Source: Bdellovibrionales bacterium RIFOXYD12_FULL_39_22
GTDB lineage: Bacteria > Bdellovibrionota > Bacteriovoracia > Bacteriovoracales > Bacteriovoracaceae
Direction of reading: 5' to 3'
DNA: 20,000 nucleotides
NCBI GenBank assembly: GCA_001770205.1
Contig: MEQL01000056.1
Span: 55,426 to 75,425 of the forward strand
This document shows, piece after piece, positions 10,704 to 17,708 of this stretch. Within the stretch, counting starts at the first letter, position 1; each line of letters opens with the position of its first letter. The notes under the pieces are model-generated. The model was not told where the DNA came from and searched no databases. It saw nothing but the letters and a program-made list of their open reading frames with translations. The translations under genes were made by a program, and so were the position numbers.

Positions 10704-11396
10704 ATGTCAAAAAGTAATGTCATTGCAATTGATGGCCCCTGTGGTGGTGGAAAATCTTCGGTGGCCAAAGCGGTGGCCACCGGACTTAAGATTTTATACG
10801 TCGATACTGGAGCGATGTTTCGTGCGTTAGGTTTAGTTTGTTCTCGGCGAGGAATTGCTTTTGAGGAAGGGCCGACAATGCGTTTCTTTTTGAATAATAT
10901 AAGGTTTAACTATGGCCGTTCTGAAGAGTGCTTAGTTGAGATAGATGGGGATAATTTGACGGAACCAATTCGAGAACATTCTGTTTCTGATTTAGCATCA
11001 AAGGTTTCTCAAATTGGTTCTGTCAGGACTTTTTTAAAACAGGTCCAAAAGGATTTAGTTTTGGAGAAGGTATGTATTATGGAAGGGAGAGATATTGGAA
11101 CGGTAGTATTTCCCATGGCCTTTTGTAAGATATATTTGACGGCAACTCCAGAGATTCGGGCGCAGCGAAGATATGATCAATTAATGGCCCGCGGAGGTAG
11201 TGAAATTGATTTTCAGAAAGTTTTGCAAGATCTTAAGACGCGCGATCACAATGACATGAATAGGGAAATTGCTCCACTTAAACAGGCCGAGGATGCGTTC
11301 CTGCTGGATTCGTCGGGCCTCACTTTTGAGCAGGTGGTAGAAAAGATAAAACAGGTAGCAAGAGAGCGAGCAATAATAGAGAAAATAAAGCTATGA
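10704..11396 (+). CDS. cmk: cytidylate kinase
   Basis: IAIDGPCGGGKS, DTGAMFRA, EGRDIGTVVFP, RDHNDMNREIAPL. Confidence 0.97.
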   Translation: MSKSNVIAIDGPCGGGKSSVAKAVATGLKILYVDTGAMFRALGLVCSRRGIAFEEGPTMRFFLNNIRFNYGRSEECLVEIDGDNLTEPIREHSVSDLASKVSQIGSVRTFLKQVQKDLVLEKVCIMEGRDIGTVVFPMAFCKIYLTATPEIRAQRRYDQLMARGGSEIDFQKVLQDLKTRDHNDMNREIAPLKQAEDAFLLDSSGLTFEQVVEKIKQVARERAIIEKIKL

Positions 11397-12493
11397 GAGT
11401 TTTGATCAATAGGAGTGATGCAATTGGAGATACTCTTCTTACTTTGCCAATGGCCAAGCTTCTAAAGGAGTATGATCCTAAAATTCATATCACCTTTATT
11501 GTATCGAAAAAATCAATAAACCTATTTGCTAATCTTACCTACGTCGATGAGATAATTGAATGGAAAGATTATGGCGGGACGATTAATACTTTCTGGTCTT
11601 TTTTTAATAAACTAAAAAAGTGCTCAGCAGATGCATATTTCTATGTAGGAGGCAGTCACATGCCTTCACTGATCGCAAAGATTATTGGAATCAAATTTCG
11701 CGGAGGATTGAAATCGCGGCCCTCGACTTTTTTTCTGCTTAATCGAGGTGTGCGGCAAAAACGTTCTTTAGTGGAAATGCACGAGTCTGACTATAATTTG
11801 AACTTGCTTGCGCCATTAGGTGTTCATTATGATTTTGATAAACGAAATAATTATCGCCCGGAAATTATTTTAACAGAAAAAGAGATTGCGGAGGCCATGC
11901 TTCATTTTACTAAGGATTTGGCAAGTAAGGCGATTACATATAACGATAATCTAATATTTATTCATCCAGGCATGAGTGGACACACCTTAAATTGGCCTTC
12001 ACGAAACTATGCCAGGGTAATTTCGCGTCTGGAACGACGAGTACCAGGAAAATACATATATGTTGTTTCATACACACCAGCGGATCAAGCTTATTTGAAA
12101 GTATTAAATAGCGAGTTAGAAAAGAGCGAGTATGATAAAGTTCGAGAGCGGATTTTCTTTTTTGATGGATCTAAGAGAGGATTGCGTAATTATATGTCCG
12201 TTTTGTCGAAGGGCCAACTTTTTATTGGGCCGAGCACAGGAACAACTCATATTGCTAATTCATTAAAAATTAAAACAGTGGCCATATATTCCCCGATAAA
12301 GGTTCAGTCCGCCATGCGCTGGGGTCCTTTTGATCGGACAGAAAATCATTGTCGAGTGGTAGTTCCGGACGTCATTTGCGGAGAACAATTTGCTTGTCTG
12401 GGAACAGAATGTCCATATTACGATTGTATGATGAAAATAGAAGTCGACGATGTAGCTGGCGCGGCCTTAGATCTTTTAACGATGGGAGTTTAA
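11393..12493 (+). CDS. glycosyltransferase family 9 (ADP-heptose:LPS heptosyltransferase-like)
   Basis: RSDAIGDTLLT, IHPG, GPSTGTTHIA, RWGP. ATGA overlap with cmk; adjacent to the heptose kinase gene. Confidence 0.88.
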   Translation: MRVLINRSDAIGDTLLTLPMAKLLKEYDPKIHITFIVSKKSINLFANLTYVDEIIEWKDYGGTINTFWSFFNKLKKCSADAYFYVGGSHMPSLIAKIIGIKFRGGLKSRPSTFFLLNRGVRQKRSLVEMHESDYNLNLLAPLGVHYDFDKRNNYRPEIILTEKEIAEAMLHFTKDLASKAITYNDNLIFIHPGMSGHTLNWPSRNYARVISRLERRVPGKYIYVVSYTPADQAYLKVLNSELEKSEYDKVRERIFFFDGSKRGLRNYMSVLSKGQLFIGPSTGTTHIANSLKIKTVAIYSPIKVQSAMRWGPFDRTENHCRVVVPDVICGEQFACLGTECPYYDCMMKIEVDDVAGAALDLLTMGV

Positions 12494-12498
12494 TTTAT

Positions 12499-13518
12499 AT
12501 GTTGTCTATTATATCGCCGAAGAGATTTTCAGAGCTAATCAGTGCGTTTTCTTCTATTCGGCCAGTTTTGGTTGTGGGAGATGTTGGTGTGGACAAATAC
12601 ACCATTGGTTCGGTGAGACGGGTTTCTCCGGAAGCTCCAGTACCAGTTTTAGAAGTTAATGAAGAATTTACTAAACTTGGCCTTGCCTCGAACGTTTCAA
12701 ACAATCTAAAATCTTTAGGAATTGAATCAACGTTGTGTGGAGTGGTTGGCCAGGATAGTAAGGCAGATATTTTTACTGAACTACTTCGCAAGGCCGGTAT
12801 TTCTGCGGAAGGAGTAATTCAAGCAACTAATCGAATGACTACCTTCAAGGAGCGCGTGACTACTGCAGGACAACAAATTTGTCGAGTAGATTACGAGACG
12901 ATAGAACCACTAGATAAAAGCTTAGAAGATAGTTTTACGCAGAGAGTGATCAATTTAAAAAGCAGTCATGCAGGACTCATTATTGAAGATTATGGCAAGG
13001 GGGTATTAACGCAGAAAGTATTGGCCGATATTATTGACCGCTTTACCTCAGAGGGGATGGTCGTCACGATTGATCCAAGCAGAACAACCCCGCCGCAATA
13101 TTACAAAGGAGCAACGTTACTAAAGCCCAACTTATTAGAGGCCACCAAAATGGTTCAGGCACTAGGTCATAGCGAAAAGGCCCTTGAGCGGATATCTGAA
13201 ATATTAGTAGAAAAGCTGAAGCTATCAAAACTAGTAATTACTCTTGGTGGAGAGGGAATGGCCTTATTAGATACAAAGGCATCAGGAAAATTAGAATACA
13301 TTCCTACAGTGGCCAGTGAAGTTTTTGATGTATCTGGGGCCGGTGATACTGCCATAAGTTTGATTACTGCCGGCCTTTTGGCCGGAGGATCTTTGGCGGA
13401 GGCCTGCTGGCTGGGAAATTGCGGTTCTGGAGTGGTTGTTGGTAAGCGTGGTACTGCTACAGTTAATACACAAGAGTTATCAGAGTATTATCATCGCATA
13501 ACCCAAAAGTTAAAATAA
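12499..13518 (+). CDS. rfaE1: D-glycero-beta-D-manno-heptose-7-phosphate kinase (stand-alone RfaE/HldE kinase domain)
   Basis: VVGDVGVDKY, RVSPEAPVPV, EDYGKG, KPNLLEA, VFDVSGAGDT. Start placed at ATG12499, after the GT9 stop and the GGGAG RBS. Confidence 0.92.
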   Translation: MLSIISPKRFSELISAFSSIRPVLVVGDVGVDKYTIGSVRRVSPEAPVPVLEVNEEFTKLGLASNVSNNLKSLGIESTLCGVVGQDSKADIFTELLRKAGISAEGVIQATNRMTTFKERVTTAGQQICRVDYETIEPLDKSLEDSFTQRVINLKSSHAGLIIEDYGKGVLTQKVLADIIDRFTSEGMVVTIDPSRTTPPQYYKGATLLKPNLLEATKMVQALGHSEKALERISEILVEKLKLSKLVITLGGEGMALLDTKASGKLEYIPTVASEVFDVSGAGDTAISLITAGLLAGGSLAEACWLGNCGSGVVVGKRGTATVNTQELSEYYHRITQKLK

Positions 13519-13610: not shown

Positions 13611-13639
13611 TTGATTTTGATTTTGCGGTGTGTTATATT
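13611..13639 (+). promoter_or_regulatory. sigma70-type promoter of the ncRNA
   Basis: TTGATT(13611-13616)-N17-TATATT(13634-13639) with extended -10 TG at 13631-13632. Predicted +1 (~13645-13647) falls at the start of the structured region. Confidence 0.7.
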
Positions 13640-13649
13640 GTCTCTTGTC

Positions 13650-13754
13650 CCCGTCGTTAAGGGCGACCACTTTCGAAAGTAGTGGAAGCAAAGCCCAGCT
13701 CTAAGTGCTTCAAAAATATTTTTAGAGGCATATGGGTTGTGGGTTGCCGAAGGG
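13650..13754 (+). promoter_or_regulatory. c-di-GMP-I (GEMM-I) riboswitch aptamer, variant
   Basis: Core motifs AGGGC...GAAA...GCAAAGCC...GGGTTGCCGA. P1 is CCCGTCG/CGAAGGG. P2 is CCACT/AGTGG with GAAA loop at 13675-13678. P3 is AGCCCA/TGGGTT with an 11-nt tetraloop receptor TCTAAG(13700-13705)/TATGG(13731-13735) and distal stem TGCTTC/GAGGCA. Ligand-contact equivalents: G20=13662, A47=13690, C92=13747. Confidence 0.88.
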
Positions 13755-14069
13755 TAAAGACACCGTCTTTAGACTGGCAGAGTTTTGAGGCCAGAATTTG
13801 ACGGGACAAAAACCTGTTTAAGCTTTTTTGGATTTATCTTTATCTTTATTTTTGTTATTGGAGGAGTTTTTTGGTTTTTGTTCAAAGGCGGATGTTTTTA
13901 GGAGGTTATTTTAGAGAATATTGGGCCTGTTCTAAAATTTATTTCTGGCGCTTGTTTCTTCAGGGAGTTTTTAGTCCGGTATTTTTTTCTTTCGTGCCGG
14001 TCTTTCGAGGGGCAGCGCGCTTAGTGGCATTTTTGCCGCTATTTCGAAATGAGGTTTTTGGAAATCAAT

Positions 14070-14102
14070 AGGGAGGGCCGCGTATGAGGCCCTCTTTTTT
14101 TT
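14070..14102 (+). terminator. intrinsic (Rho-independent) terminator
   Basis: GAGGGCC(14073-14079)/GGCCCTC(14088-14094) stem followed by T8 (14095-14102). Confidence 0.9.
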
Positions 14103-14173: not shown

Positions 14174-15238
14174 ATGATCGAGAAACTAAACAATCTCTTT
14201 TCCAACTTTACAACACAATTAGAAGCACTTTCAAAGCAGGCAGAAGTTTTAAATCTTAAGGCCGATTTACTGGGAAAAAATGGCAAGGTCTCTGAGATTT
14301 TGTCATCGCTAAAGAATGCATCGCTCGAGGAGAAAAAATCAATTGGTGCCTTGGCCAACAAAATAAAAGATGATGTGCAGCAGCTCATCAATCAAAAGCT
14401 AAATGCACTAGAACTAGAGGTTATCAATCATAAATTGGCCAGTGAGCGAATAGATATTTCACATTTAGACTCAATTAAGGCCTCTGGATTATATAGTGGT
14501 GGATATCATCCAGTCACTATTGTGCAAAAAGAGATAGAAGAGATTTTTTTATCAATGGGTTTTGAGGTTTTAGATGGGCCACATATTGAAGACGAGTACC
14601 ACAATTTTGAGGCCCTGAATATTCCCAAAGATCACCCGGCCAGGGATATGACTGATACTTTCTGGTTTCAGCGCCCAGATGATACTTCGGTCGCCAATAA
14701 ATACCTACTGCGCACGCACACTAGCACTATTCAGGTGCGAGGAATGAAAGGAAAAAGGCCGCCATTTAAATTTATTGCTCCGGGTAAAGTATTTCGGGCA
14801 GAACGCACTGACGCATCTCACGAGATGGTTTTTCATCAACTAGAGGGGATGTTGGTGGGTGAAAACATTTCTGTTTCACACCTGATTTTTTTCATGAAAA
14901 CGATTCTTAGCGAGATTTTTAAAAAAGAAGTAGATGTTAGATTGCGTCCAGGCTTCTTTCCTTTTGTGGAACCTGGTTTTGAATTAGATATTAAGTGTCT
15001 TATTTGCGGAGGTGGCGGCTGTTCTGTTTGTAAGCAGTCTGGTTGGGTGGAGCTTCTTCCCTGTGGGATGGTTCACCCCAATGTTTTACGACATGGCGGG
15101 ATTGATACAAATAAGTATAATGGTTTTGCGTTTGGACTAGGGTTGGATCGCTTAGTTATGTTGAAATATGGGATTGATGATATTCGCCATCTGCATGGTG
15201 GTGATTTGCGCTTTGTCTCTCAGTTTAAATCATATTGA
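14174..15238 (+). CDS. pheS: phenylalanine--tRNA ligase alpha subunit
   Basis: NFEALNIPKDHPARDM, LLRTHTS, FHQLEG, FPFVEP, GFAFGLGLDRL. Confidence 0.98.
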   Translation: MIEKLNNLFSNFTTQLEALSKQAEVLNLKADLLGKNGKVSEILSSLKNASLEEKKSIGALANKIKDDVQQLINQKLNALELEVINHKLASERIDISHLDSIKASGLYSGGYHPVTIVQKEIEEIFLSMGFEVLDGPHIEDEYHNFEALNIPKDHPARDMTDTFWFQRPDDTSVANKYLLRTHTSTIQVRGMKGKRPPFKFIAPGKVFRAERTDASHEMVFHQLEGMLVGENISVSHLIFFMKTILSEIFKKEVDVRLRPGFFPFVEPGFELDIKCLICGGGGCSVCKQSGWVELLPCGMVHPNVLRHGGIDTNKYNGFAFGLGLDRLVMLKYGIDDIRHLHGGDLRFVSQFKSY

Positions 15239-15278
15239 ATTTAAATACTCAGTATCTGAAAAAAAGAGGAAGTAGAAG

Positions 15279-17708
15279 ATGATAATTTCACTTGATTGGA
15301 TAAAAGATTTTGTAAAAATACCAGAGAATTTATCGGCCAAAGAAATTGGCCAAAAATTTACGCTGGCCACCGCCGAAATTGAAGGTATTACCGAAGTAGG
15401 TGCGGGACTTGAAGAAATTAAGGTCGCGCAAATTTTAGAAATTGAAAAGCATCCAGAGGCCGACAAGTTAAATTTAGTTACATTTAAATTTGAGGAAAAT
15501 GCGATAAAGAAGGTTGTTTGTGGAGCTTCCAATGTGCGAGTAGGAATGAAAGTGCCCTATGCCCCACTGGGAGTAAGGCTTCCCAATGGGATGGTACTAG
15601 AACCCAAAAAAATTCGTGGTGTTTTATCAGAGGGAATGCTTTGTTCCAAGCAAGAGTTGGGATTAGAGGAGGAGTCGCATGGACTAATGGAACTTGTTGC
15701 AGATACAACTCTGGGAACGAGCATGCTCACTTATCTTCAAGAGATGCCAGATGTTTTAATTGAAGTTGATAATAAGTCATTAACCCATCGTCCAGATTTA
15801 TGGGGGCATTTCGGAATTGCGCGTGAATTTGCTACGGTATTTGAACAAGATTTGCAAAATCGTTTTGATAAAAAATGGGAAGAACGTTTTACTAAAATGT
15901 TTACCACTGATAAATCACCAATAGTTCCTTTTGTTGAGATAAATTGTTCTTCACTTGGCTATTTCGGACTATCTATGAACAATGTGAAGGTTGCACCTAG
16001 TCCGAATTGGATGCAAAGAAGGTTAAAAAATATTGGCCTGCGCCCAATTAATAATATTGTTGACGTTAGTAACTATGTAATGCTGGAGTTGGGAATTCCG
16101 CTACATATTTTTGATCGAGATAAAATCAAAGGAGAGAAATTAGTTATTAAGCAGATGAATTCCGACGGAGTGGAGTTTGAAACACTGGATGAGATCAAGC
16201 GAAAGCTTATTGCGACGGATACCGTAATATGTGATGAAACAGGCCCATTAGTACTTGCCGGAATTATGGGGGGACTTTCTAGCGGGATTAGTGATAATAC
16301 CCAAAATATCTTCATAGAAGTTGCCAATTGGAAGGCCGCAGATGTTCGGCGCACTTCTGCTCGACTGGGATTGAGAACTGATTCGTCACAGCGCTATGAA
16401 AAATCACTAGACAGTCAGTTGCTTACTCGAACGATGTATCGGACAGTCGAGCTTATGATTGAACTGCTTCCGGCCGCTAAAGTTGTAGGGAAACTGGAGT
16501 ATGCTGGCCCTGCAATTTCTAACTTTTCACCACTAATAATTCAAACGACGGTGGAAAAAATTGCCACCACCTTGGGCCATCCGGTATCTAAGGAAAATAT
16601 GCTGAATATTTTTCGAAGATTGGATTTTAAAGTTGTTGCCAATGGAAATAACTTGGCAGTAGAAGTTCCCAGTTATCGTTCTACAAAAGATGTCGAAGTG
16701 GAAGCTGACTTAATTGAAGAAATTGGCCGAATTGTTGGTTACGATAACATAGTTCCTACCTCTCCATTATTCAGGGCCGTTCCTGTCGCCTATTCAAATA
16801 CCCAAAAATTTCATCAAAAAATTAGAAATTTCCTGATTCATAGCTCGCGTGCTTTTGAAGTAATGAGCTATCCTATGGTTGGAGAAAAATTACTTAACAG
16901 AGCAGCATGGCCTTATGACAATGCCCTCTCCATCATTAATCCTCTTTCGAATGATTTTTGCATGATGAGAAATTCTCTGATTCCATCTATTCTTGATACG
17001 GTCGCTCTTAATCAGAAAAATTATACAGAGTTTCGTTTCTTTGAACTAGGTCGCGCCTATGTTAAAAATGCAAAAGAGTTTCGCAAAGAAGAATCGCATC
17101 TTGGTGTGGCATTTTTCTCACAAAGCAATGGACAATATCTTGACTTAGTAAATGAAAGCGAGCGCCTATTATCATCCCTCAATGTGCCTTATCAATTGGC
17201 CGGTAAGGATAAAAAATTTTCGTCATTAGTGATCCCAGGGGGCTGGATGGGGGCCCATCCTTACGAGTATTATGACTTGAAGATAATGGGAAAAAATTAC
17301 GGGGCCATTTTTTCAGTTCACCCTATTTTGCTTCGTGAATTTAAAATACGTGGAAATTTGGCAATACTAATTTTAGAGATGTCGGCGTTCGAAAATAATA
17401 ATCTAAAAGATAAGAAAAAATATGAACCGTTAAGTAAGTTTCCAGTTGTAGAGTTTGATTGTACTGTTGTGATGCAGAGCGAGCGGTCAATATCGTCAGT
17501 TTTAGAACCACTATCGAAGCTAAAATTAAAAGAACTTTTGTCTTATAAAATTGTGGGACAATATGACATTTCAGAAGATAAACGGAGTGTTACTATTAGA
17601 ACTATTTTTGGTGATAAGGAGAGAACTTTATCACCAGAATTCATTAAGAGTGCGGAGGGACAGGTGATTAGCGCTCTTTCCAATGCGGGCCTTCCGTTAA
17701 AAGAATGA
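15279..17708 (+). CDS. pheT: phenylalanine--tRNA ligase beta subunit
   Basis: MIISLDWI, KHPEADKL, VCGASNV, SEGMLCS, RPINNIVDVSNYVMLELG, DLIEEIGRIVGYD and a C-terminal anticodon-binding-like domain. Directly follows pheS. Confidence 0.97.
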   Translation: MIISLDWIKDFVKIPENLSAKEIGQKFTLATAEIEGITEVGAGLEEIKVAQILEIEKHPEADKLNLVTFKFEENAIKKVVCGASNVRVGMKVPYAPLGVRLPNGMVLEPKKIRGVLSEGMLCSKQELGLEEESHGLMELVADTTLGTSMLTYLQEMPDVLIEVDNKSLTHRPDLWGHFGIAREFATVFEQDLQNRFDKKWEERFTKMFTTDKSPIVPFVEINCSSLGYFGLSMNNVKVAPSPNWMQRRLKNIGLRPINNIVDVSNYVMLELGIPLHIFDRDKIKGEKLVIKQMNSDGVEFETLDEIKRKLIATDTVICDETGPLVLAGIMGGLSSGISDNTQNIFIEVANWKAADVRRTSARLGLRTDSSQRYEKSLDSQLLTRTMYRTVELMIELLPAAKVVGKLEYAGPAISNFSPLIIQTTVEKIATTLGHPVSKENMLNIFRRLDFKVVANGNNLAVEVPSYRSTKDVEVEADLIEEIGRIVGYDNIVPTSPLFRAVPVAYSNTQKFHQKIRNFLIHSSRAFEVMSYPMVGEKLLNRAAWPYDNALSIINPLSNDFCMMRNSLIPSILDTVALNQKNYTEFRFFELGRAYVKNAKEFRKEESHLGVAFFSQSNGQYLDLVNESERLLSSLNVPYQLAGKDKKFSSLVIPGGWMGAHPYEYYDLKIMGKNYGAIFSVHPILLREFKIRGNLAILILEMSAFENNNLKDKKKYEPLSKFPVVEFDCTVVMQSERSISSVLEPLSKLKLKELLSYKIVGQYDISEDKRSVTIRTIFGDKERTLSPEFIKSAEGQVISALSNAGLPLKE

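Follow-up and report, generated by a model that had tools for sequence, protein, structure and literature searches.

A candidate c-di-GMP-sensing stand-alone RNA gene upstream of pheST and its family in Bacteriovoracaceae

The stretch of DNA analysed here, termed the window, comprises 20,000 nucleotides (nt) of Bdellovibrionales bacterium RIFOXYD12_FULL_39_22, a member of the family Bacteriovoracaceae (GenBank assembly GCA_001770205.1, contig MEQL01000056.1, positions 55,426 to 75,425 of the forward strand). In the 655-nt gap between a gene for a PfkB-family sugar kinase and pheS/pheT, positions 13646–14102 probably constitute a stand-alone gene for a structured RNA that senses cyclic diguanylate (c-di-GMP) and does a job like that of the merRNA of Bdellovibrio bacteriovorus, rather than controlling pheST. 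The predicted RNA belongs, as a divergent representative, to an RNA family of Bacteriovoracaceae that has not been described before. RNAs of this kind, stand-alone c-di-GMP riboswitches, are already known; what is new here is a family with its own conserved output domain.

The original prediction, made from the letters of the window, was of a self-contained RNA of about 455 nt, opened by the promoter TTGATT-N17-TATATT and closed by a strong terminator before pheS. Both boundaries were found, giving a unit of 457 nt. The promoter agrees with the consensus at 9 of 12 positions and carries a TG extension, so that transcription is expected to start at about 13646; the terminator ends 71 nt before pheS. 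Taken by itself the promoter match says little, because this AT-rich region yields seven promoter-like sites versus 2.0 ± 1.4 in shuffled sequence. A comparable promoter (at least 9 of 12 matches) lies upstream in 22 of the 61 family members described below, its −10 element ending 9–17 or 24–46 nt ahead of the CCC run, and a simple script finds a terminator-like hairpin with a U run in 46 of them, ending 196–543 nt from the 5′ end of the family match. The 457-nt RNA has a minimum free energy (MFE) of −149.4 kcal/mol (z = −3.91), which none of 100 shuffles equalled.

An RNA family of Bacteriovoracaceae

BLAST of positions 13611–14102 against 61 genomes, 60 of them relatives, returned two short matches only, of 26 and 33 nt. 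Since the genus has no close DNA relatives, the comparison was made through synteny and profiles. The Rfam model of c-di-GMP-I riboswitches (RF01051) has matches in 9 of 151 genomes of the host's family. Four of the eight matches in relatives exceed the cut-off, three of these being syntenic, and seven of the eight adjoin homologues of the same kinase and/or pheS; the eight syntenic matches, with that of the window included, score 26.9–36.9 bits. This set was extended by an nhmmer profile, and a covariance model (R1) was then built from 20 sequences, syntenic relatives included. R1 has exactly one match in each of 61 of the 151 family genomes, belonging to 33 of the 69 genera, and every match covers model positions 1–161. 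The kinase–pheS intergenic regions of relatives, to which the original prediction had pointed as the place to look, thus yielded syntenic homologues from which the family was extended.

In the 61 sequences, standard pairing occupies 94.4% of cells; shuffling lowers this to 78.4%, and sliding the partner strand to 53.6% at best. Both sides have changed in 13 of 21 pairs. The finding of the RNA family also shows that the Rfam cut-off misses it as a whole. Judged by the contig titles of PheS relatives, the carriers are Bacteriovoracaceae, Halobacteriovorax, Peredibacter and Bacteriovorax metagenome-assembled genomes. The Bacteriovoracaceae group is the second large lineage of Bdellovibrio-and-like predators.

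The sole non-syntenic GEMM-I of the family sample (locus L005, genome G075) is a compact canonical aptamer scoring 45 bits; behind it come a terminator-like CCGGCTTTTTTT, AAAGGAG and an open reading frame (ORF) that starts with ATG. It is a classical riboswitch unrelated to the RNA family described here.

A c-di-GMP-I aptamer at the 5′ end

With Rfam run in E-value mode, RF01051 matches positions 13652–13751 (+) over model positions 1–87 of 87 (33.7 bits, E = 8.9e-5), and the other nine matches listed are noise (E at least 0.68). The aptamer is thus full-length and at the 5′ end of the RNA, as predicted, beginning about 6 nt past the expected transcription start and leaving about 350 nt of further RNA downstream. 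It is the sole GEMM-I in the 3.9-Mb genome.

Both hairpins of the aptamer covary in the 61 sequences: P2 is 98.4% paired with double changes in four of five pairs, and P3 is 96.3% and 98.4% paired with double changes in four of eight. The type 1 GEMM motif is characterized by a P2 capped with a GNRA tetraloop and by a tetraloop receptor within P3; in the family, the GAAA loop is invariant or nearly so, and CUAAG and UAUGG flank the P3 internal loop here and in most relatives. Ligand contacts in this riboswitch class are made by the G before P2, the A's of GCAAAG and the CC after P3. These junction nucleotides align to conserved letters of the model, and across 20 sequences each shows full or at least 90% conservation. 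The G preceding P2, which separates c-di-GMP sensors from sensors of cyclic GMP-AMP (cGAMP), is invariant. The conserved motifs, together with the strong covariation of P2 and P3, argue for selection on the aptamer fold.

Long-range helices and a tiny frame in the 3′ domain

The 5′ strand of the family, (A)ACCC(C)GU, has two possible partners. One is RCGG right behind the aptamer, giving the helix P1 of about four base pairs (bp), for which this locus uses CCC/GGG; the other is a nearly invariant ACGGGUC some 150 nt downstream, giving the helix P0 of 6–10 bp. P0 was predicted by RNAalifold and is formed in the MFE fold of the locus (13645–13655 with 13800–13809). Its core, CCCG/CGGG, is paired in 98.8% of cells, and its flanking pair, read by eye, is A-U in most members, G-C in two, U-A here and G·U in two. 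Mean duplex energies are −9.8 kcal/mol for P0 and −5.7 kcal/mol for P1, with P0 the stronger in 58 of 59 members.

A third helix, P5, links the stretch just 3′ of P1 to the stretch just 5′ of a GGAGG motif. At this locus, RNAduplex gives −19.9 kcal/mol for P5, versus −12.6 with non-cognate and −9.5 with shuffled strands; family-wide, the cognate mean is −18.8 versus −13.2 and −11.3 kcal/mol, and the cognate duplex is better in 43 of 44 cases. RNAalifold on a MAFFT alignment of the 3′ domain recovered a hairpin with a UGGYGAG loop but not P5; as the P5 columns are out of register in that alignment, the helix rests on the duplex test. The UGGYGAG hairpin occurs in 38 of the 61 members with 27 distinct stems, and four of its five pairs have double changes, while the motif ACAUU(C/A/U)A is present in 36 members (shuffles, 5.2). 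Pairing of ACGGGUC with the tiny frame described next, as a sequestor helix, was tried and found unsupported (−6.6 kcal/mol for cognate and non-cognate strands alike, −5.4 for shuffled ones).

In 45 of the 61 members, GGAGG is followed after 2–10 nt by ATG, TTG or GTG, at most four codons and TAA, TAG or TGA. When the rule is applied to the first GGAGG only, 41 members comply, against a mean of 8.2 and a maximum of 16 when the downstream 30 nt are shuffled. The frame, here called the mini-ORF, mostly reads Met-Gly-Pro-stop; its codons differ among members in the third base (GGU/GGG/GGA/GGC; CCG/CCA/CCU), and each of the three start codons and three stop codons occurs. This pattern is suggestive of a translated frame, beyond a conserved RNA motif, with counts that are inflated by kinship. 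The present locus keeps the aptamer, P0, P5, the GGAGG at 13901–13905 and the terminator, and stands outside the 45 because its mini-ORF begins 15 nt after GGAGG. An mRNA for a conserved peptide was among the findings that, according to the original prediction, would speak against an RNA acting in its own right. No conserved protein-sized ORF is present, yet the module of GGAGG and mini-ORF, which had been overlooked, is conserved. A frame of three codons, however, would not ordinarily count as a peptide gene.

Relation to pheST

The gene pheS lies downstream on the same strand in 41 of the 61 members, starting 273–738 nt from the 5′ end of the RNA, and is absent within about 1.5 kb downstream in the other 20. 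Downstream ORFs were inspected in 18 of these 20, all but L136 and L145: eight have a convergent ORF next, and in the others the next ORF is unrelated, encoding for instance an rlmN-like enzyme, an FG-GAP repeat protein or a decarboxylase-like enzyme. Given that the downstream genes vary, selection acts on the RNA independently of pheS, and since the neighbours elsewhere are unrelated or convergent, the RNA is not regarded as a pheST leader.

The contrary explanation, that leaky or c-di-GMP-dependent read-through of the terminator supplies pheST mRNA and that the RNA is mainly cis-regulatory, is unlikely. It draws on the frequent position of pheS behind the RNA, on relatives without the RNA, in which pheS starts 11–92 nt after the upstream gene in an operon-like arrangement, and on the 71-nt gap between terminator and pheS, in which no sigma-70-like promoter was found. 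A weak terminator-like hairpin on the P0 3′ strand (13800–13828) would also fit the layout of a transcriptional switch. That hairpin, however, is peculiar to this locus: the U run behind it is absent in relatives of the RNA family, so the internal terminator-like site is not conserved. A strong terminator stands before pheS here and a terminator-like site occurs in most members, a third of the family has no pheS nearby, and we know of no precedent for c-di-GMP control of a housekeeping tRNA synthetase. It is therefore proposed that control of pheST is not the output of the RNA, with read-through into pheS possible.

A T-box or Phe-leader was considered as well. The idea came from ACAUUCA, which contains the Phe codon UUC, and from a hairpin loop reading UGGN. 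It was rejected: Rfam gave only noise (Phe_leader, E = 9.8; leu-phe_leader, E = 9.6) and no T-box match, the N of the loop varies (U, C, A, G), and ACAUUCA persists where pheS is not adjacent.

Many relatives have a uniform gap of about 600 nt ahead of pheS, which was likewise examined as the same RNA, an idea that was rejected because the gap contains an ORF of 170–190 amino acids (aa); guessed to be a second HldE domain, this ORF is assigned to DUF4416 by Pfam instead. Most pheS loci of Bacteriovoracaceae (L014–L092) have the DUF4416 gene between the PfkB kinase gene and pheS. It is absent from that position here, and some relatives have both the DUF4416 gene and the RNA, with gaps of about 1000–1300 nt.

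In two loci of genus g88 (L175 and L177), the RNA core is directly followed by a gene for an FG-GAP repeat protein of 451–455 aa, starting 313–348 nt from the 5′ end, and no terminator was found between the core and this gene. There, the core of aptamer and P5 may regulate a surface protein in cis, in the way of an ordinary riboswitch.

Traces of expression

A search of sequencing runs with a 3-kb stretch found eight DNA runs that contain all of it and four runs labelled metatranscriptomic, from two samples of one study, that contain 13% of its words. The runs labelled metatranscriptomic yield one contig per sample on the 20-kb window, and both contigs lie wholly inside the predicted RNA. One is 417 nt long (13664–14080, depth 27.5) and the other 403 nt (13661–14063, depth 17.5), each with zero differences and no loose ends, and both pass through the weak hairpin at 13800–13828. 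The rest of the window is without cover in these runs, and uncovered parts are not counted as evidence. The contigs hint that a discrete RNA of this extent exists.

Proposed mechanism and points against it

According to the proposed mechanism, a sigma-70-type promoter would set the transcription start a few bases 5′ of the aptamer, and the transcript would end before pheS at an intrinsic terminator. The 5′ CCCCGU would pair either with RCGG, as P1, or with ACGGGUC, as P0, and without ligand the stronger P0 would form. In this riboswitch class, ligand binding stabilizes P1; c-di-GMP would do so here and free ACGGGUC, so that the RNA would exchange the P0 fold for the P1 fold. This exchange would remodel the 3′ domain, where P5 is predicted to set GGAGG and a frame of two to five codons beside the aptamer. 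The output would then be the RNA itself, acting through the quantity of c-di-GMP that it retains, through the accessibility of its 5′ end or through the loading of ribosomes or of a GGA-binding protein, and ribosome loading on GGAGG and the mini-ORF could lead to protection or decay of the RNA. We thus infer c-di-GMP binding, a P0/P1 switch and effects on ribosome loading, stability or c-di-GMP buffering; the idea of a ‘reservoir’, in which c-di-GMP is held by the RNA, appears in the available text of the merRNA paper (PMC3627812).

Several observations weigh against this account. At the curated gathering thresholds, Rfam gives no match in the whole 20-kb window, the 33.7 bits of the aptamer lying below the cut-off of 35, and the P2 internal loop reads GAC/GAA versus AAA/GAC in the consensus; given this score and the altered loop, the predicted affinity and identity of the ligand are not assured. 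The expectation that the Rfam c-di-GMP-I model would recognize the element thus held in E-value mode, over the full length, and failed at the gathering threshold. The core of P0 is without variation and so is uninformative on pairing, which leaves the flanking pairs read by eye as its comparative support. Moreover, P0 and P5 cross and would together form a pseudoknot, so that they may either coexist or exclude each other. The locus itself lacks the UGGYGAG hairpin, in place of which it has a U-rich insertion, and the ACAUUCA motif; as its mini-ORF is also set 15 nt from GGAGG, the features of the family apply to it only in part. Under strict filters, 90 of the 151 family genomes have no R1 match. 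Because no promoter is seen in the gap before pheS and the spacing in relatives is operon-like, pheST may partly depend on read-through. Finally, the runs labelled metatranscriptomic are flagged ‘RNA? (probably DNA)’, none of the runs listed is on record as RNA, and their contigs, from a single study, show neither ends, strand, level nor growth phase.

Despite its sub-threshold score, the aptamer is considered genuine, because seven of the eight matches in relatives are syntenic and the helices covary in 61 sequences.

Other explanations

A c-di-GMP-gated ribosome trap or minigene, in which the P0/P1 switch sets ribosome loading on GGAGG and Met-Gly-Pro-stop, is quite unlikely. An abundant RNA would sequester ribosomes, or drain tRNA through peptidyl-tRNA drop-off at the Pro-stop, and would act as a second-messenger brake on translation in the non-growing attack phase; the micro-ORF of merRNA, preceded by a Shine–Dalgarno motif, would be the Bdellovibrio version.

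It is equally doubtful that the aptamer is a relic or has changed its ligand, which would leave a structured small RNA that is independent of c-di-GMP or responds to another cyclic dinucleotide. The low RF01051 scores in the host's family (26.9–36.9 bits for the syntenic matches versus 50.8–80.9 bits in other families of the phylum) and the family-wide change of the P2 internal loop would suit such a history. Against them stand the tetraloop, the receptor-like motifs and the junction nucleotides, which vary little or not at all in 20 to 61 sequences, the strong covariation of P2 and P3, and the invariant G before P2 that marks c-di-GMP rather than cGAMP sensors.

Somewhat less probable still is a protein sponge, in which GGAGG and GGA motifs would titrate a CsrA-like protein in the manner of CsrB/RsmZ, with c-di-GMP tuning the availability of the sites. 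The genome has a csrA gene, and the 3′ part of the RNA (347 nt) is rich in both motifs (GGAGG, 3 versus 0.28 in shuffles, P = 0.003; GGA, 9 versus 4.3 expected, P = 0.017), as is merRNA in GGA motifs when read by eye. Most family members, however, have one or two GGAGG, and known sponges have far more binding motifs. Nor would a CsrA site require the start codon and stop that follow GGAGG in 45 of 61 members, and CsrA binding is purely conjectural here.

That the transcript is an mRNA whose 66-codon ORF (13871–14071) encodes a small hydrophobic protein or a Phe-rich leader peptide attenuating pheST is very improbable: the GGAGG ahead of its TTG, its end at the foot of the terminator, its 13 Phe among 66 residues, the pheS gene downstream and an open run of 86 codons that only 36 of 1000 shuffles reach are all set against a search of 5.8 billion proteins in which the sole match is its own sequence, the lack of a corresponding ORF in the homologous RNAs, and a Phe content that is equal in all frames (16, 20 and 15) and owed to 45% U.

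Features of the locus

The elements of the RNA gene and its neighbours are collected in Table 1.

Table 1. Elements of the RNA gene and neighbouring genes, in coordinates of the window
Feature	Position	Strand	Remarks
Sigma-70-like promoter	13611..13639	+	−35 TTGATT 13611–13616, 17-nt spacer, TG-extended −10 TATATT 13634–13639
Predicted whole RNA, ~457 nt	13646..14102	+	From promoter, terminator and folding
5′ strand TTGTCCCCGTC	13645..13655	+	Common to P0 (partner 13800–13809) and P1 (CCC 13650–13652 with GGG 13752–13754)
Candidate c-di-GMP-I (GEMM-I) aptamer	13652..13751	+	P2 with GAAA tetraloop; P3 with CUAAG/UAUGG receptor-like motifs and 12-nt loop insertion
P5 5′ strand (TAAAGACACCGTCTTT)	13755..13770	+	RNAduplex
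P0 3′ strand GACGGGACAA	13800..13809	+	Family consensus ACGGGUC
Weak terminator-like hairpin GACGGG/CCTGTT, then TAAGCTTTTTT	13800..13828	+	Uses P0 3′ strand; this locus only
GGAGG no. 1	13860..13864	+	In U-rich insertion replacing UGGYGAG hairpin; 6 nt before TTG of 66-codon ORF
66-codon ORF, TTG start	13871..14071	+	Ends at terminator foot
P5 3′ strand (AAAGGCGG-A-TGTTTTTA)	13884..13900	+	RNAduplex
GGAGG no. 2	13901..13905	+	Directly 3′ of P5; homologous to the family's conserved Shine–Dalgarno-like motif
Degenerate mini-ORF TTG GGC CTG TTC TAA (Met-Gly-Leu-Phe-stop)	13921..13935	+	15 nt after GGAGG no. 2
Intrinsic terminator	14070..14102	+	10-bp stem (6 G-C pairs) 14070–14097, then 8 T to 14102
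PfkB-family sugar kinase gene (‘rfaE1’ in the original prediction)	12349..13518	+	Pfam PF00294, E = 6.5e-35
pheS 14174–15238, pheT 15279–17708	14174..17708	+	Pfam

Two stretches of the 3′ domain, CCTGTTTAAG (13812–13822) and CCTGTTCTAA (13924–13935), resemble two copies of the mini-ORF end. Together with the U-rich insertion, they suggest, as far as sequence can tell, that the 3′ domain was duplicated or rearranged internally in this lineage. In a subgroup of the family (L146, L149, L154, L158 and L172), the promoter is set back by about 35–40 nt, and the stretch thereby added to the 5′ leader is able to fold into a terminal hairpin, such as UCCAAUGAGC...GCUCUUUGGA, which may be a 5′ stabilizer. 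Upstream of the RNA gene, a heptosyltransferase ORF (11393–12493) overlaps the longest form of the kinase ORF by 145 nt; as the Pfam match covers the protein from residue 96 onwards and the alignment of relatives sets in at about residue 50, the true start of the kinase is probably further downstream.

Comparison with merRNA and other known systems

In the sample of the phylum, GEMM-I is found in 35 of 151 genomes (the window's own included), always exactly once, and 34 of the matches exceed the cut-off; in families of Bdellovibrionota other than the host's, the scores are 50.8–80.9 bits. In the complete genome G268, the match at 1,073,868–1,073,951 (−) falls inside the published coordinates of merRNA. 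In B. bacteriovorus HD100, merRNA occupies 1,073,741–1,074,185 (−), between ilvE (Bd1131) and mrp (Bd1134), according to the available part of its report and Table S1 (PMC3627812). The aptamer of this locus (L117) lies at +235 to +318 of the 445 nt, with 234 nt upstream of it, and HD100 pheS is 0.5 Mb away. Among the nine loci of the merRNA-bearing family (L105, L108, L111, L113, L114 and L116–L119), eight have a terminator 120–141 nt after the aptamer and six have a convergent ORF starting 126–159 nt after it. These loci also have a conserved frame of 10–14 codons preceded by AGGAGG, for example MRTHEHHDDELK and MKNRIHDHHDEPPK, about 160–190 nt upstream of the aptamer (seven of nine by script, two more by eye), a second invariant AAGGAGG just before the frame, and a conserved GGAUUGGUUUCAUUCCCCUUA before the terminator.

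The RNA described here and merRNA are alike in that each has the single GEMM-I of the genome in a non-coding transcript, about 450 nt long, that has a promoter and an intrinsic terminator of its own, controls no protein gene, belongs to a predatory host of the Bdellovibrionota, and carries strong GGAGG motifs and a tiny frame preceded by a Shine–Dalgarno motif. They differ in synteny (ilvE/mrp versus kinase/pheS) and in layout, the aptamer being internal in merRNA and 5′-terminal here with about 350 nt downstream. The frame has 10–14 codons and lies upstream of the aptamer in merRNA, versus two to five codons downstream here, and P1 is a plain 6-bp helix in merRNA (by eye), whereas here it competes with P0. 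Outside the aptamer, there is no detectable sequence similarity: the nhmmer profile of the family gave five weak matches (E = 1.9e-4 to 0.098) in 30 GEMM-I loci of other Bdellovibrionota families, all within profile positions 10–114, the aptamer part, and none to the merRNA locus L117. Since the tests of sequence, synteny and layout fail outside the aptamer, the RNA is regarded as an analogue and not an orthologue of merRNA. Of the original suggestion, ‘a homolog or analog’, the second half therefore stands, upheld by the RNA's own promoter and terminator, its single copy in 61 of 151 genomes, the absence of a constant downstream gene and of a conserved protein-sized ORF, and the confined contigs, and the first half does not. 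Its own boundaries and the absence of a controlled protein gene place the RNA in the merRNA-like functional class, with read-through into pheS possible.

A third setting is seen in other families of the phylum. In 11 of the 30 loci L093–L122, an ORF of 224–265 aa follows the aptamer by 45–552 nt; six of these ORFs, when translated, are radical-SAM, QueE-like proteins, Pfam gives Radical_SAM for the one submitted, and a terminator intervenes in some loci. The QueE-linked units resemble the present RNA in having one GEMM-I per genome within the same phylum, often with a terminator about 100–140 nt after the aptamer, and differ in their shortness, their high-scoring canonical aptamers, their constant downstream gene and their lack of a domain with P0, P5 and mini-ORF. 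Within the phylum, GEMM-I thus occurs, once per genome, in no fewer than three settings.

The available text of the merRNA paper reports no conservation outside Bdellovibrio and cites the SreA work (PMC3627812); in the portions accessible of later studies, the merRNA promoter is used (10.1101/2025.05.17.654431) or merRNA is mentioned in passing (PMC11323537; 10.1101/506055). A literature search at the level of database records found no c-di-GMP riboswitch RNA described in Bacteriovorax or Halobacteriovorax.

Although merRNA is among the most abundant RNAs of the attack-phase Bdellovibrio cell, its function is still guesswork thirteen years after its discovery. In the other large lineage of obligate predators, the single c-di-GMP aptamer likewise sits in a gene-less RNA, comparable in size but built differently, and as two independent architectures have the same parts (sensor, GGAGG, tiny frame and terminator), it can be argued that the RNA itself is the effector. 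The family also offers comparative handles beyond those of merRNA, namely the competition of P0 and P1, the P5 helix that places a putative ribosome-binding site beside the sensor, and 61 natural variants.

Further systems share some of these properties. EutX/Rli55 reportedly combines a B12 riboswitch with a sequestering domain and acts in trans, and SreA/SreB are said to be S-adenosylmethionine riboswitches acting in trans. As here, a metabolite sensor sits inside an RNA whose output is the form or availability of the RNA itself, with other ligands and output domains; EutX has a conserved termination switch with short and long isoforms, whereas such a site is weak here and confined to this locus. 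The bar minigenes of phage lambda and the STAB-SD of the cryIIIA leader act through ribosome binding or peptidyl-tRNA drop-off. They likewise combine a strong Shine–Dalgarno motif with a frame of two to five codons or none, and need no protein product; to our knowledge, they have no link to a riboswitch, whereas here the motif is joined to a riboswitch aptamer and ribosome loading is putative. With canonical c-di-GMP-I riboswitches (RF01051, e.g., Vc2 of Vibrio cholerae), the RNA shares the two-hairpin aptamer, the GAAA tetraloop, the receptor and a full-length match to the model. It departs from them in its score below the cut-off, its altered P2 internal loop and the absence of an adjacent gene-controlling expression platform, the alternative partner of the P1 strand lying instead 150 nt away, in the conserved 3′ domain.

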